Below are positions 3-6,664 of a DNA stretch of 64,000 nt, in pieces (positions within the stretch are counted from its first letter, which is position 1; each line of letters opens with the position of its first letter). The notes beneath the pieces were generated by a model that ran no database searches, was not told where the DNA came from, and was given only the letters and a program-made list of their open reading frames with translations. The DNA comes from a virus (taxonomy: Duplodnaviria; Caudoviricetes). The stretch is taken from the IMG/VR virus record IMGVR_UViG_3300031760_000001, positions 64,001-128,000 of that record; one strand, 5' to 3'. Both the position numbers and the translations under genes were made by a program.

Positions 3-536
3 CTTTAATTGTTCCCCGATATTATTATATGCAACTTCACCAAACTCATCCAACGCGGAATCGTTTTGTAATGGCAAGTGACCCCAATATCCTTCATTCA
101 GTATATTATATCTATATATATTAGCATGTCTTGATAAATCACCCGAATCTTTCCTTGACCCCTTATAAACAAGTTTTATTGCAGTAGTTGGTATCGGGTT
201 GTCATATACAAAACACCCCTTCATATGTGTATCAGGGTCTGGGTTTAGATGTGTTTTATCTAATTGTTTAGTATCAACTGCATATATATCATCATCATAT
301 GTGCTATCATATTCACCAAACTCATTATAATCATACAGAAAAACATATGGTTTTAAACCATCCTGGTCATCCCAATGGGCTTTATATGAATATCCAACAG
401 AAGGTATCAATCCATTCTTTAAAATAGATTTTCTTACTGACACAGGTGCTTTGTGGTATAAAATACCAACATTATTTTCATACCCTTCCAATATGTTTGA
501 AATCAAATTTTTTACTTGTATATCTGTTAATTCCAT
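3..536 (-). CDS. ADP-ribosyltransferase-fold (Tpt1/KptA-like) domain protein, 3'-partial (runs off window)
   Basis: Not in the ORF track. Manual translation from ATG 536: MELTDIQVKNLISNILEGYENNVGILYHKAPVSVRKSILKNGLIPSVG...PYVFL...IYAVD...FVYDNPIP; the LYH-x7-SILKNGLxP pattern is typical of ART-fold domains; open to the window edge. Confidence 0.6.
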   Translation of the reverse strand, partial: MELTDIQVKNLISNILEGYENNVGILYHKAPVSVRKSILKNGLIPSVGYSYKAHWDDQDGLKPYVFLYDYNEFGEYDSTYDDDIYAVDTKQLDKTHLNPDPDTHMKGCFVYDNPIPTTAIKLVYKGSRKDSGDLSRHANIYRYNILNEGYWGHLPLQNDSALDEFGEVAYNNIGEQLK

Positions 537-539
537 AAT

Positions 540-3500
540 CTATTTTTTAGGTTTAAATCTTTTTGCAAATGTCCCACATGACCAAGCCCAGTCATATTTG
601 TCAATATCCGATACTGGAATCCACTTAAACTTCGTGTTTTCCTCGTCACCCTCGCCTGGTTTATAATCACTTGTCTTTCCTGGCAAATATATCTTGAAAT
701 TGGTACCCCACTCTTCCTTGCTTGCCAGTACCAAATCCTTCTTGTCAAACTTAATCCCAGATTCCTCCTCACATTCCCTGATAGCACCATCCTCTGGAGA
801 TTCGTATTTGTGCCTGTGACCCATAGGCGGATTCATTTTACCACCCTCGTCATCCCATTCATTCTTAATTCTCTTAGCTGCAAGGATACACCATTCGTCT
901 TTATTGTTTTTAGCATAGGCATACACTGCAGATGACTTTCTACCATCCTCACCAGTGACAGCCTCGGACAATATACTATATACTATGTTGTTAACCATCT
1001 CATTCAACCCTGGCTGCTGCTGTATGGGTTCTTCAGTTTCGTAATCACACAACACACCATCCTTTCGCATTAAATACTTTTTATCATTTAATTTAACCAA
1101 AGCCAACCCTCCATAGAAATCACTACACACATCATACCACTGGTTACTTAATAACTGACCGTTATCCTGTCGTACCCAATTATATTCACCATATAATTTA
1201 ACCCTAGCCAACCCTTCATGGAAACCCCAACACGCATCATACTCCTGATTATTTAATAACTGTCCATTATCCGCACGTACCCAATTGAATCCAGTAATTA
1301 ATTCAACCACAGCCAAGCCTTCACTGAAACCCCAACAATAATCATACCACTTGTCACTTAATAACTGACCGTTATCACGTCGTACCCAATTATATTTACT
1401 ACTTAAATTAATCACAGCCAACCCTTCATTGAAATCACCACACCCATCATACCACTTGTCACTGAATAACTGTCCGTTATCCTGTCTTAACCAATTCCAT
1501 TTACTACTTAATCTAACCTTAACCAACCCTTCACGGAAATCGCCAACATATTTAAACACGTCTTTAGGAGATTCGCCGTTCCTTAGTCTGTTCATTGCAT
1601 CGTCAACAATCCCCTGCCATTTTCCGTTCGGTTTGAACACCTCAAAGAAATTCCTCCCAATAACCTGGCTTATCTGTTTGACATTCATTATGTTGTCGTC
1701 ACCACCATTGTCATGGTTCCACCTGCATGTGCAGGTGTTCAACCTGCCGCTTTCATCAACGCTGACGGCAATCATCGACAAGCCGTAACTGTCCAACGGA
1801 CAACCTTCACCCACTTGTTCAGGTTCGTTCTCAAATCCGTTCCTCAAACAGAAATAGAACTGTCCTAAACCATTGGATGTGTACGAGTCAAGCATATTTT
1901 CGTCATGTGTCACACACCATGAGGTATATTGTCCATATTGTGAAGCTTGTTCAAAATTGTCAATTCTGACGATTTGGTAGTCACCATTCTCCGTAAACTG
2001 CATATTACCAAGTTCTTCACGTTCCTGGTCATCCATTTGTTTCATCGCAGTAGAAAAACGCTGTATGACATCCTGTGCCGACATGCCGTTAAGATTGCGG
2101 TCGTATTCGTTGAAATGACCCTGTGTCAGGAGTTTAAGTGTCTTGTTGAGATTCTGTATCGTGGAGGCATCGGTCAACTGTTTATCAAGGAACATCCTGG
2201 TCACACCCAGGATGAACTTTGCAGCGTTCTTGTCCCTGAGGACTGGCAAATCGTTTCGCAAATCCACACGGATGAATTTGTCAGCCTCTTCAGCCGACTT
2301 TCCCGTGCGCTGCATGAACAGACGTTTTGCTGCGTCGATGGATTTGCTTTCCTGACTCTCGTTAAGAGTGTATGGGTTGCCACCAACTGATTTTATATCT
2401 TTCTTTTTCTTTCTTACACTGATGCCACCGAACAACGGTTGCACAAACTCACCGCTTCCGAAACCGTTTCCGTCAACGCCAGAACAGCTTGCGGCTCCGC
2501 CACCAGCGGCACCTTCTTCGTCGAGTTTATTATCCTCTATTTTCTCGTTATATATTTCAACCGCATCGTCAAGGTATTTACCCATCCCATATTTCGGATT
2601 GCCAGCTTGGTTGATAAATCCCATAGTCAACGGAGAAGCTTTGGCAATTCTGAGGGAGTCACACATAGGGTCATGTTCAAAAAGATTTTCATTAATCTTT
2701 CCTTCAACATCAGGGAACAACATGTCATACAAAGCATCAAGCTTTTCATTGAAACGTTCCTTTGGGACTGAATATTTCACAATCATCTTAGCGGTGTGCG
2801 GATTCCCCTCGGCATCGTGGTCGTCGATTGCCATTTTCTTGGTAATGACCTTATTATCTACCAAAGCCTTGATTAATTTATTTTTATCCAAACCATTCTG
2901 AGTGAATATCATATCAGGCTCAGCACCTGTCGGGTCTTCCAACAATGCAGCCAAGAATTTCTTGATATTCGCTTTGAATTTGAACTGAGTCATTGTAAGT
3001 AAGTCTTTCAACTCACCAGCAATATCCTCGTTTATAATTATAATTCTATTTTTGTTCGTTGTTTCCGAAACTTTTTTATTACCATACGGATTTCTCGGAT
3101 GTCTATCACTTGCCTCGCCATTATTAACCAATTCGTAAGGAACTACATCATATATTTCAAACCCATTAACTGTGTTGGGATTAAAAAAGACATATCCTTT
3201 ATCGGTGGTGACTCTATAGTAACCACCATAAAAACCATCACAACTATATACTAAATATGGAAATTTCTGTAAATTAAACGCATATATCTCAAACGGTTGT
3301 CTATTTTCCCTACTATTTTGAGTATCTTGTACTTTAATGAACTGACCAGCGCATATTGATATTTCAAATTTAGGGCGGTCAAAAACAATTCTGTAAGCAG
3401 ATTCATAAATTATTGCAATATTAAAACCCGCCTCTGTCAATATGATAGCAAAAACATCTCTATCAAACTCATATACCTCACAAGCCTTAACCCATTCATC

Positions 3501-4793
3501 TAAAATTTCATTTCCGTTAATTGTGTATACAATATTGAATAATTTATTCTCATTCATTACCACAACATAACATGTACTACGTGTCTGCATAACTTTATTA
3601 TACCACTTATCTGTTATAACTCGTGGCGTGCCATATGTACATGACATAACAGTAGTTTTGTTATTTTTATTTAAAAAAATAATACCATTACGATAATCTA
3701 CATCATCATATAAATCTTCAATTAATAGTTCGCCATCATTACCGCATATAATGTATTTTGGCTTATTCATGTCATCATTTTCATAACGGAACGCAAAATA
3801 TTTTAACCCATCATTATACACACTATCTAAATCTATATATCCACCCTCTTCCTCATCATCATACTCATCTACATCAGTATCAAATAAAGGCACTAAATCA
3901 TCATCATCGGCTGTAATTGAATACCATCCGCAATATCTATCGCGAAACTCATTAATAGCCTCCGAAATAATCATTTTTCTTTTGTTAGCCAACTCTTCTT
4001 CAGTATAAGGAATAAATGTCTGATAAAAACCACGACCAATTATTTGTTCAAGCTGCTGTGGTGTCATAATGTTATCATTTCCACCATTTTCGTGATTCCA
4101 TCTACAAGTAATGGTGTTTGGACTACCGTCTTCATTAACACTAACAGCTATCATAGATAATCCATAACTATCTAACGGGCAATTTTCACCAGGCTGTTGC
4201 GGTTCATTTTCAAACCCATTTTTTAAACAAAAATAGAATAACCCCAACCCATTATTTGTATACGAATTATATGCACCTTCATCTTGTGTTACACACCATG
4301 AAGTATAATCACCATATTGGCTTGAAACCTCGAAATTAGGGACTTTTACAATATTGTATTCATTGTTTTGTGTATATGTTCTACTAGCCGATAATTCCTT
4401 TTCACGTGCGATATCGTTTGTTATTACACCAGAAAACCTCTTAATAAGGTCATTTGCCGACAAATTATTAAGGTTATAATCATATTCATCAACATGTGCA
4501 TTACTACCAATATAGCGTAATGTTTTATTGAATTGCATAATTGTATTAGCATCAGTAAATTGGTCGTCAATAAACATTCTTGTTATACCAGACAGAAACT
4601 TACATGCAGCAATCCTAGAATTGGGAATATCATGCCTTATACCATCTATAATATTCTGTGCTTGTTCTTGCGAATAACCCTTTGAAATACAGTATTTCCT
4701 AGCAAGATTTATATTTTTGCTTTCCCTGTTTTCAAATATTAAATGCTTTATTTGATTACCAATTTCCTCATTTATGATTATAATCTTTGACAT
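540..4793 (-). CDS. Modular polyprotein (1417 aa): WC-motif domain x2, WG-type beta repeats, central core, C-terminal NUDIX hydrolase
   Basis: Duplicated ~240-aa domain (YG.YTSWCVT...CPLDSYGLSMIAVSV...CRWNH.NGG); 35-aa WG-like repeats; exact NUDIX box GHRHKYESPEDGAIRECEEESGI. Confidence 0.8.
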   Translation of the reverse strand: MSKIIIINEEIGNQIKHLIFENRESKNINLARKYCISKGYSQEQAQNIIDGIRHDIPNSRIAACKFLSGITRMFIDDQFTDANTIMQFNKTLRYIGSNAHVDEYDYNLNNLSANDLIKRFSGVITNDIAREKELSASRTYTQNNEYNIVKVPNFEVSSQYGDYTSWCVTQDEGAYNSYTNNGLGLFYFCLKNGFENEPQQPGENCPLDSYGLSMIAVSVNEDGSPNTITCRWNHENGGNDNIMTPQQLEQIIGRGFYQTFIPYTEEELANKRKMIISEAINEFRDRYCGWYSITADDDDLVPLFDTDVDEYDDEEEGGYIDLDSVYNDGLKYFAFRYENDDMNKPKYIICGNDGELLIEDLYDDVDYRNGIIFLNKNNKTTVMSCTYGTPRVITDKWYNKVMQTRSTCYVVVMNENKLFNIVYTINGNEILDEWVKACEVYEFDRDVFAIILTEAGFNIAIIYESAYRIVFDRPKFEISICAGQFIKVQDTQNSRENRQPFEIYAFNLQKFPYLVYSCDGFYGGYYRVTTDKGYVFFNPNTVNGFEIYDVVPYELVNNGEASDRHPRNPYGNKKVSETTNKNRIIIINEDIAGELKDLLTMTQFKFKANIKKFLAALLEDPTGAEPDMIFTQNGLDKNKLIKALVDNKVITKKMAIDDHDAEGNPHTAKMIVKYSVPKERFNEKLDALYDMLFPDVEGKINENLFEHDPMCDSLRIAKASPLTMGFINQAGNPKYGMGKYLDDAVEIYNEKIEDNKLDEEGAAGGGAASCSGVDGNGFGSGEFVQPLFGGISVRKKKKDIKSVGGNPYTLNESQESKSIDAAKRLFMQRTGKSAEEADKFIRVDLRNDLPVLRDKNAAKFILGVTRMFLDKQLTDASTIQNLNKTLKLLTQGHFNEYDRNLNGMSAQDVIQRFSTAMKQMDDQEREELGNMQFTENGDYQIVRIDNFEQASQYGQYTSWCVTHDENMLDSYTSNGLGQFYFCLRNGFENEPEQVGEGCPLDSYGLSMIAVSVDESGRLNTCTCRWNHDNGGDDNIMNVKQISQVIGRNFFEVFKPNGKWQGIVDDAMNRLRNGESPKDVFKYVGDFREGLVKVRLSSKWNWLRQDNGQLFSDKWYDGCGDFNEGLAVINLSSKYNWVRRDNGQLLSDKWYDYCWGFSEGLAVVELITGFNWVRADNGQLLNNQEYDACWGFHEGLARVKLYGEYNWVRQDNGQLLSNQWYDVCSDFYGGLALVKLNDKKYLMRKDGVLCDYETEEPIQQQPGLNEMVNNIVYSILSEAVTGEDGRKSSAVYAYAKNNKDEWCILAAKRIKNEWDDEGGKMNPPMGHRHKYESPEDGAIRECEEESGIKFDKKDLVLASKEEWGTNFKIYLPGKTSDYKPGEGDEENTKFKWIPVSDIDKYDWAWSCGTFAKRFKPKK
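1091..1550 (-). repeat. 105-bp tandem repeats (~4.4 copies) encoding WG-like repeats
   Basis: Units start at about 1091, 1196, 1301, 1406 and 1511 and share agccaaccct / atcataccac / ataactg.cc.ttatc / cgtacccaat. Confidence 0.9.
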
Positions 4794-4800
4794 TTTAAAT

Positions 4801-5046
4801 TTACTTTTTCTTAATCATTGTTTTCCAGAATGATTTCTTCAACCACATATTTTCAATAAATTCTGCCACAACATCAACGGCTATGTTATGAACCTTCTTC
4901 TCAAAGTCCTTGCTCTTCATATAGTCCTCAATCTGGCTTTCAACCTGGCTTCTTGTCATATCCTCATTGAGTGGCATAATCTTCTTGAGGCATTCCATCA
5001 CCATCAGGTTAATATCGTTTTCTGTTATGCTGATTTTCTTGTTCAT
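4801..5046 (-). CDS. Small putative virion/head-associated protein
   Basis: 81-aa ORF with KISITENDINLMVMECL...PLNED motif; TATTTAT upstream. Confidence 0.55.
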   Translation of the reverse strand: MNKKISITENDINLMVMECLKKIMPLNEDMTRSQVESQIEDYMKSKDFEKKVHNIAVDVVAEFIENMWLKKSFWKTMIKKK

Positions 5047-5090
5047 GATATAACTAATATATAATAATAAATATTAATTAACAATAAAAA

Positions 5091-5115
5091 AAGAGCCATA
5101 TCAAATATGACTCTT
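5091..5115 (-). terminator. Intrinsic terminator
   Basis: AAGAGTCATA-TTTGA-TATGGCTCTT followed by a T-run on the minus strand. Confidence 0.7.
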
Positions 5116-6648: not shown

Positions 6649-6664
6649 AATATATTATAAATAT

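Follow-up and report, generated by a model that had tools for sequence, protein, structure and literature searches.

A modular 1417-aa protein with (L/I)-x-Glu joints as candidate capsid cargo of a giant T4-like phage

Introduction

Why should a giant phage string several modules, some of them apparently enzymes, into one 1417-aa chain with a hydrophobic-x-Glu motif at the joints between them? The question was raised by the open reading frame (ORF) at 540-4793(-), which encodes the protein P0001, in a 64,000-nt stretch of viral DNA referred to here as the window. The window comprises bases 64001-128000 of an IMG/VR virus record of 244,784 bp, estimated to be 69% complete. To judge from its genes, the source phage, which is uncultured, is a T4-superfamily giant phage. 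In T4, the prohead protease gp21 cuts after Glu in (L/I)-x-E.

P0001 is read here as tagged capsid cargo, a multi-enzyme polyprotein that the head protease would cut into pieces and that would be injected along with the DNA. This reading is regarded as probable, if not by a wide measure, because all of the joints match the T4 head-protease cutting rule and the phage encodes a homologue of that protease. A payload of this kind had been proposed in an earlier note on this DNA, and the claims of that note are taken up below with the results that bear on them.

Architecture of P0001

The anatomy of P0001 was drawn from Pfam matches, self-comparison, homology breakpoints and two AlphaFold (AF2) models built on homolog alignments (model 1, residues 1-300; model 2, residues 561-1417). 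The protein is a chain of a leader, a first WC domain (WC-A), a beta region, an internal leader, a module H, a Gly-rich linker, a second WC domain (WC-B), WG repeats, a short helix and a NUDIX module. The joint motifs, numbered by their Glu, are INE9, IFE21, INE589, INE702/LFE706, LDE759, LNE812, LNE1265 and LSE1277. All of the boundary motifs listed in the earlier note (IIINEE, LIFE, IIINED, KINE/LFE, KLDEE, TLNES, GLNE and ILSEA) are present in the ORF.

The leader (residues 1-21; 4731..4793(-)) carries INE9 and IFE21. It scored 12.1 bits with the tag hidden Markov model (HMM) described below, and was modelled as a helix at 9-19 and a break at 20-22 with a predicted local distance difference test (pLDDT) value of ~72. 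The break separates the leader helix from the first helix of WC-A (residues 22-262; 4008..4730(-); pLDDT 92.5, the same value as for model 1 overall), which has a conserved Trp-Cys and RWNH and what looks like an enzyme-like fold. A long helix (265-288) containing ISE278 and INE282 then leads into an acidic linker (together residues 263-330; 3804..4007(-)), with pLDDT down to 57 by residue 300. The beta-rich region (residues 331-560; 3114..3803(-)) was weakly matched to the WG region by BLAST over 366-458 (E 4e-4).

The second half begins with a disordered stretch (561-583) and the internal leader (584-605; IIIINE-D...), which together occupy 2979..3113(-) with pLDDT 41-62; relatives start here. 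Module H (residues 606-702; 2688..2978(-)) is helical, with pLDDT 62-79, and ends in KINE. An optional insert (residues 703-759; 2517..2687(-); pLDDT 22-44), absent in some relatives, lies between KINE and KLDE. The Gly-rich linker (residues 760-812; 2358..2516(-)) has a GEF-x-x-P-x-FGG core, a Lys run and a GNPYTLNE end, and is conserved in relatives. WC-B (residues 813-1056; 1626..2357(-)) is followed by a helix and the WG beta repeats (residues 1057-1260; 1014..1625(-); PF14903, 54.1 bits against a cut-off of 25.6; pLDDT >90), where a regular run of paired strands was modelled at 1090-1250. A tag-like short helix (residues 1261-1277; 963..1013(-); tag HMM 8.6 bits; pLDDT 38-46) lies between LNE1265 and LSE1277. 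The chain closes with the NUDIX hydrolase module (residues 1278-1417; 543..962(-); PF00293, 36.1 bits against a cut-off of 21.1). Its Nudix box is intact: G-HRHKY-E-SPEDGAI-RECEEESGI fits G-x5-E-x7-R-E-U-x-E-E-x-G-U, and the fold was modelled with high confidence. The NUDIX and WG-repeat assignments are secure. No family was found for the WC, H and beta regions in Pfam or PHROGs.

The two WC domains align over residues 21-262 and 812-1056 with 51% identity (E 3e-86). In both copies the aligned part begins with the Glu of a joint motif (IFE21 and LNE812), so that the duplicated domain does begin where the earlier note had placed it, and the NUDIX module likewise begins after LSE1277. In model 2, pLDDT fell below 50 at 561-583, 653-677, 698-811 and 1261-1284; WC-B was folded from residue 812 and the NUDIX strands started at 1287.

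Placement and conservation of the joints

The earlier note had proposed a check of whether the motifs fall in disordered linkers between domains. In the models, each of INE589, INE702, LFE706, LDE759, LNE812, LNE1265 and LSE1277 was found within a low-confidence stretch or at its border. Six to seven of the 13 modelled [IL]xE sites fall within the 19% of residues that have low pLDDT (binomial P = 0.024 to 0.005), and WC-A, WC-B and the WG region of P0001 contain none.

Conservation was assessed with the boundary Glu as P1 and the residue two before it as P3. For the WC joint, the count covered the 150 best proteins of other phages, which hold 161 full copies (106 at the N-terminus and 55 internal). 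P3 was Leu or Ile in 154 and P1 was Glu in 153, and N-terminal and internal copies behaved alike: among internal copies, many of which have a whole internal tag ahead, P3 was kept in 53/55 and P1 in 52/55. An independent IMG/VR set of 46 WC copies gave Ile or Leu at P3 in 44, written with nine different codons, and Glu at P1 in 42 (GAG 25, GAA 17). The nine P3 codons indicate a constraint on the protein and not on the DNA. In the AF2 models P3 lies outside the folded domain yet is ~96% conserved, which suggests a linear motif.

The same rule was found ahead of other modules. In 29 NUDIX copies the N-boundary was hydrophobic-x-E followed by AVTG or a variant (P3 Leu or Ile in 26, Val in three). 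About 30 copies of the Gly-rich linker had [ILMV]-x-E ahead wherever upstream sequence was present, and a WC, NUDIX or Zn-ribbon module after. Module Y, found with X and Z in the neighbouring protein P0003, followed (L/I)-N-E in 5/5 cases and began G-x-W-G. A hydrophobic-x-E boundary was also present for the Zn ribbon (8/8), Z (2/3), X (2/2) and H. The rule stands in front of these modules after unrelated upstream sequence. In P0001, [IL][TNS]E occurs nine times against 2.6 in shuffled sequences. Taken over all the motif classes counted, what lies above chance is the placement and conservation of the motifs and not their number.

Module shuffling among relatives

At these motifs, modules have been gained, lost, split and put in another order among relatives; the earlier note had proposed a comparison of orthologs for gain and loss there. 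P0070 is 76% identical to P0001 over residues 582-1415 and has its Met exactly at the internal leader, where P0155-P0168 also start. The second half of P0001 therefore exists elsewhere as a separate tagged gene, commonly of the form leader-H-linker-NUDIX and ~370 aa long. A search for loci related to that of P0070 gave no pattern match. It is because relatives start there, and not for its HMM score, that the internal segment is called a leader. P0012, P0021, P0073 and P0091 have the same modules in other orders and numbers.

Individual exchanges fall at the joints. Presence or absence of the segment 703-759 is delimited exactly by KINE and KLDE; P0163-P0167 lack it, and their INE runs into the Gly run. 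After the linker end GNPYTL(N/T)E comes WC in P0001, but NUDIX in P0012 and in proteins of the P0155 type. P0158 has a short scar where P0001 has WC-B and the WG repeats. The leader of P0003 is followed by module X in P0003 and by module Z in P0061.

Two further proteins were seen in which module H and the linker are joined to a cyclophilin-type fragment (P0169; PF00160) and module X to a GNAT domain (P0204; PF00583). These could be further module swaps at the same joints, or chimeric assemblies.

The existence of both split and fused forms bears on another explanation, that P0001 is packaged with only its N-terminal propeptide removed, the 160-kDa chain staying whole and the internal sites being leftovers from the fusion of tagged genes. 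The internal leaders could be such relics, and that of P0001 lacks a second Glu site. Most known substrates are trimmed in this way, and the cuts mapped in SPN3US, protease self-cleavage aside, all remove N-terminal propeptides (PMC10052503). Relics would be expected to decay, yet P3 and P1 of the internal WC copies are kept almost throughout (see above). Sites of this kind are likewise found ahead of untagged modules, namely NUDIX, the Gly-rich linker, Y and the Zn ribbon, and in P0001 they are exposed in low-pLDDT linkers, where a Glu-specific prohead protease should be able to reach them. Removal of the propeptide alone is thus considered quite unlikely, and processing at the internal joints is retained in the cargo reading.

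A portable N-terminal tag

A tag HMM was built from 16 N-termini and searched against the six-frame translation of the genome, with E <1e-4 taken as strong. Nineteen strong copies were found on unrelated proteins. The tag opens with basic residues, continues with a short hydrophobic strand, a first site of the form (L/I)-(T/N/S)-E and an amphipathic helix that ends in I-x-E, and often includes a third site, LNE.

The 12.1-bit match of P0001 is at residue 1, the best place in the protein; controls reach 12 bits in 0.2% of cases, and 25% of WC-family N-termini from other phages score at that level. P0001 and the stand-alone H-NUDIX protein P0155 have the same first ten residues. Module X occurs in databases as proteins of 105-177 aa, either with the full canonical tag or without any leader, so the tag is separable from the fold and optional.

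A small ORF just outside the window (L002 ~2100-2700(-), genome 60102-60700) has two tag copies; the first is at or close to the ORF start, and the second, internal one scores 37 bits. The ATG annotated for this ORF probably cuts off the first tag.

Head protease and genome setting

A gp21-like protease had been predicted to lie elsewhere in the genome, and one was found. A prohead protease of the Peptidase_S77 family, that of T4 gp21, is encoded at genome 210054-210599(-) (PF03420, 82.6 bits against a cut-off of 27), with its His and Ser motifs visible in the sequence. An S77 prohead protease was also present in 5/5 other giant phage records with WC genes that were tested.

The genome encodes a gp23-type major capsid protein (PF07068, 197 bits). 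Its nearest matches in a phage collection were uncultured huge phages and T4-like phages of Flavobacterium, Microcystis and Rhodothermus. This capsid protein (L003:1456-3516(-)) has LRE followed by Ala ~17 residues N-terminal of its conserved core, which is likely to be a propeptide site. It is 687 aa long, and a large insertion separates its two Pfam-matched parts. Genes for scaffold, baseplate wedge, ribonucleotide reductase, DnaB, primase and SbcC were also found.

The highest [IL][TNS]E densities in the proteome were those of the head-module protein encoded at 212264-213199(-) and of the scaffold gene at 201426-203114(-), with 16.1 and 8.9 per 1000 aa against 3.5 for the proteome. High densities would be expected of core proteins that are chopped by the protease.

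Identity of the WC domain and of the linker

The WC domain has the invariant residues W166, C167, R231, W232, N233, H234 and D240. In model 1 it looks like an enzyme-like alpha plus alpha/beta fold of no assigned kind. A full HMMER scan of 1.84 billion representatives gave 995 clusters (50% identity) with the domain, in one to four copies per protein. Its relatives include fusions to WG, BspA leucine-rich repeat (LRR), choline-binding or PlyG-type (CBD) binding arms. Several giant phage records hold three separate WC loci.

With the WC domain, a Foldseek search of PDB had no match with E below 0.4. In a VIA-align comparison with 48,161 chains, Z was at most 4.8, and weak GNAT and malonyl-CoA-decarboxylase rows were seen for residues 142-262. 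Repeated weak Foldseek matches to PcfJ-like proteins (PF14284) were obtained in BFVD (E 1e-3 to 1e-1; template modelling (TM) scores 0.2-0.3), and one Atlas cluster with 33% PcfJ provided a further lead. The resemblance is thus a weak one of structure and language model, between two groups that are both common in phages and mobile elements; the TM scores are low, and the PF14284 profile of Pfam had no match in P0001 or in 59 WC family members. To our knowledge PcfJ itself has no known function.

The invariant Cys and His raised the possibility that the WC domain is a cysteine peptidase that cuts the joints itself, without the head protease. C167 sits at the start of a short helix and is followed by RWNH and D240, which might be read as a papain-like order. 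No peptidase fold was matched by the WC domain in these searches, however, and its nearest structural leads are the PcfJ-like proteins. The same joints and tags also occur in proteins that lack WC, including the P0155 type, P0174 and ~19 tagged genes. Self-processing is therefore held to be highly improbable.

The search with module H gave 29 near-length homologs, most of them with a NUDIX Pfam domain and some with the stand-alone arrangement leader-H-linker-NUDIX. The Gly-rich linker has only two copies in the genome, one in P0001 (window 2358-2516(-)) and one in P0003 (L002 ~4720-4890(-)), and hardly varies among relatives whose other parts diverge by 10-55%. Because this near-invariance exceeds what a passive tether would call for, the linker may be a docking, ejection or modification signal.

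Neighbouring genes and a candidate late promoter

P0001 lies between two genes on the same strand. P0004 (4801..5046(-)) encodes a small basic protein of 81 aa that resembles an internal protein and carries a strong tag (37.4 bits). The part after LNE28, the predicted mature form of P0004, is basic (pI 9.0), has a mass of 6.4 kDa and would closely resemble an internal protein of T4.

On the other side, the first 178 residues of P0003 are encoded at 3..536(-). The gene runs past the end of the window, and the full ORF (L002:4564-6537(-)) has 658 aa. Its chain is made up of a leader, modules X, Y and Z, a tag-like helix, the Gly-rich linker and a Zn ribbon. The ILEG and LNEG motifs that had been described around the first domain of this neighbour are present, as ILE17-G and LNE148-G. 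Its assignment to the ADP-ribosyltransferase (ART) fold fared less well. With a profile of module X, the best PDB match was Tpt1/KptA (E 0.25), over the N-terminal Y-H...SIL..GL.P element only, and the nearest named Atlas clusters were Arr and DarT/PARP. These are weak leads towards such a fold, which is possible. Whole P0003 had no ART-fold match in Pfam or PDB sequence searches.

The gap between P0004 and P0001 is 7 nt and that between P0001 and P0003 is 3 nt. The TAG stop of P0001 (540-542) is followed three bases on by the in-frame ATG of P0003 (534-536), and one read-through would fuse both chains; no sign of read-through was seen.

Upstream of P0004, a terminator-like hairpin (5091..5115(-)), an 11-pair stem followed by a T run, appears to close the upstream transcription unit. 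A late-promoter-like site with the core TATTTATTAT (5060..5079(-)) lies 33 nt before the P0004 ATG. It has one mismatch to a motif that precedes the capsid and scaffold genes. With a position weight matrix (PWM) built from 27 TATTTATA[AG] sites, the site scored 12.1 bits and was among the top 48 of ~490,000 genome positions. The TATTTATA(A/G) motif lies 11-97 nt ahead of the capsid, scaffold and baseplate genes and of many tag genes, and is probably the late promoter of this phage, unlike T4 TATAAATA. Examples in the window are at 6663(-), 30355(-) and 49270(-). Late co-transcription of P0004, P0001 and P0003 is plausible, because a late-type motif and a terminator lie upstream and the gaps between the genes are so short.

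Weighing the cargo reading

A number of results weigh against the reading of P0001 as cargo that is cut at its joints. Motif numbers give it little: [ILV]xE occurred 25 times in P0001 against 19.5 +/- 3.8 in shuffled sequences (P = 0.10), [IL]xE 17 times against 14 (not significant), and [IL][TNS]E at 6.4 per 1000 aa against 3.5 in the phage's own proteome (P = 0.06). Family-wide, [IL]xE inside WC domains was at 0.82 of expectation, with control motifs at 0.99-1.49. The joint rule has exceptions: no Glu site precedes the first NUDIX copy of P0012, and P3 of module Z in P0003 is Cys. The tag match of P0001 at the N-terminus is weak, and the internal leader scored only 2 bits. A conserved hydrophobic-x-Glu before a first helix could be structural. 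The P0001-P0003-P0004 cluster is ~130 kb from the head genes and adjoins a sigma factor. Among cultured phages, megablast found no close relative, and the similarity found by tblastn was confined to the WG repeats, in two Clostridioides phage records. The cuts mapped in SPN3US, self-cleavage of the protease aside, are those of N-terminal propeptides, so several mature enzymes per chain would be without a measured precedent (PMC10052503).

Raw motif enrichment in P0001 and P0003 was dropped as evidence, since neither [ILV]xE nor [IL]xE was significant. Of the [ILV]-x-E joints as put forward in the earlier note, placement and conservation stood; the generic count was at chance and Val was rare at P3. 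Since WC domains show no more than a mild depletion of [IL]xE, accessibility would have to determine which sites are cut.

Several of these results would suit a different protein altogether. P0001 might be no capsid cargo, being instead an ordinary multidomain protein, cytoplasmic, virion-surface or lysis-related, with binding arms, its motif a structural N-cap or linker habit and its leader a device for oligomerisation or partner docking. The chance-level motif count, the weak avoidance of [IL]xE inside domains and the distance from the head genes agree with such a protein, and some of the arms fused to WC in relatives are repeats of a cell-surface type (BspA LRR, choline-binding and PlyG CBD). 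Eight unrelated module families nevertheless obey one three-residue N-boundary rule, which matches the specificity of the protease family that the phage encodes. The conservation of P3 outside the modelled fold, the late-type promoter motif and the optional presence of the leader on the same domain, as for a targeting peptide, also speak for cargo, and a role outside the capsid is judged unlikely.

The payload proposal of the earlier note consequently stands in part. The protease, the placement of sites in linkers, the module reshuffling, a weak tag and the late-type motif are in its favour, and the motif count and the slight internal depletion are not.

Proposed mechanism and significance

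In the mechanism that we infer, with its docking, cutting, head retention, ejection and enzyme roles, the P0004-P0001-P0003 operon would encode capsid cargo, each protein starting with a short leader of the tag family. By analogy with the capsid targeting sequence (CTS) of T4, the leader would dock the protein onto the scaffolding core during prohead assembly. The gp21-type serine protease would then remove the leader and cut the exposed (L/I)-x-E at every module joint. The predicted products of P0001 are WC-A with the beta arm (~66 kDa), H (~13 kDa), WC-B with the WG arm (~52 kDa), NUDIX (~16 kDa) and small peptides from the linkers. Retained inside the head, these products would reach the host together with the DNA, ahead of any phage gene expression.

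A broader version is offered tentatively. Across a large group of giant gut or rumen T4-like phages, the head protease may double as a polyprotein processor. Combinatorial modules (WC, NUDIX, ART-like, Zn ribbon and others) would each bring their own (L/I)-x-Glu joint and often their own tag helix. Cargo genes could then be freely added, dropped, fused and split, each still maturing to a separate injected protein, and the strongly conserved Gly-rich linker with its GEF-x-x-P-x-FGG core would serve as a second signal in docking or ejection.

If the cargo reading is true, a multi-enzyme first strike would be delivered from one phage gene, and the capsid protease, known mainly for trimming propeptides and scaffold, would have the maturation of injected effectors as a further role. 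The joint rule offers a simple way to predict capsid cargo and its mature ends from nothing but the sequences of uncultured giant phages, and makes what these phages inject directly testable by targeted mass spectrometry. The portable tag might load foreign proteins into capsids. The work also points to a very large, uncharacterised, enzyme-like WC family (~1000 clusters).

Comparison with known systems

In T4, a CTS of ~10 residues loads internal proteins and foreign fusions into the prohead core and is removed by gp21 after Glu; the ADP-ribosyltransferase Alt is trimmed at both ends and injected, and the CTS-bearing cargo differs among T4 relatives (PMC9026906). The present system resembles that of the CTS, IPI, IPII, IPIII and Alt in having a short N-terminal leader that ends in (L/I)-x-Glu on unrelated proteins, and a gp21-family protease encoded by the phage. 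A small basic tagged protein (P0004) beside enzyme cargo and a cargo set that varies between related phages are further likenesses, and module X of P0003, if ART-like, would parallel Alt. The tag differs from the CTS in being longer (~24 aa, with as many as three Glu sites) and in having no sequence relationship to it. Each T4 cargo protein is one unit from which one or both ends are trimmed, whereas here up to six or seven modules share a chain, with internal leaders and a predicted site at every joint.

The ejection (inner-body) proteins of phiKZ, 201phi2-1 and SPN3US, cut by gp175/gp245-type proteases, are similar in belonging to giant myovirus heads with many cargo proteins, Glu cuts at a three-residue motif and redundant propeptide sites. 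Those proteases cut after Glu with small residues at P3 (A/S/G-x-E) (PMC5694885, PMC10052503), whereas P3 here is Leu or Ile, as in T4. The cuts mapped there, in SPN3US with the exception of protease self-cleavage (PMC10052503), remove propeptides and separate no enzymes, and the proteins have no sequence similarity to P0001.

The polyproteins of RNA viruses and the polyvalent proteins of mobile elements likewise hold several enzymes per chain, with short conserved joints and reshuffled modules. For tailed phages, we know of no established case of cargo made as a multi-enzyme polyprotein. The system differs from these polyproteins in its proposed processor, which would be the capsid maturation protease acting inside the prohead.

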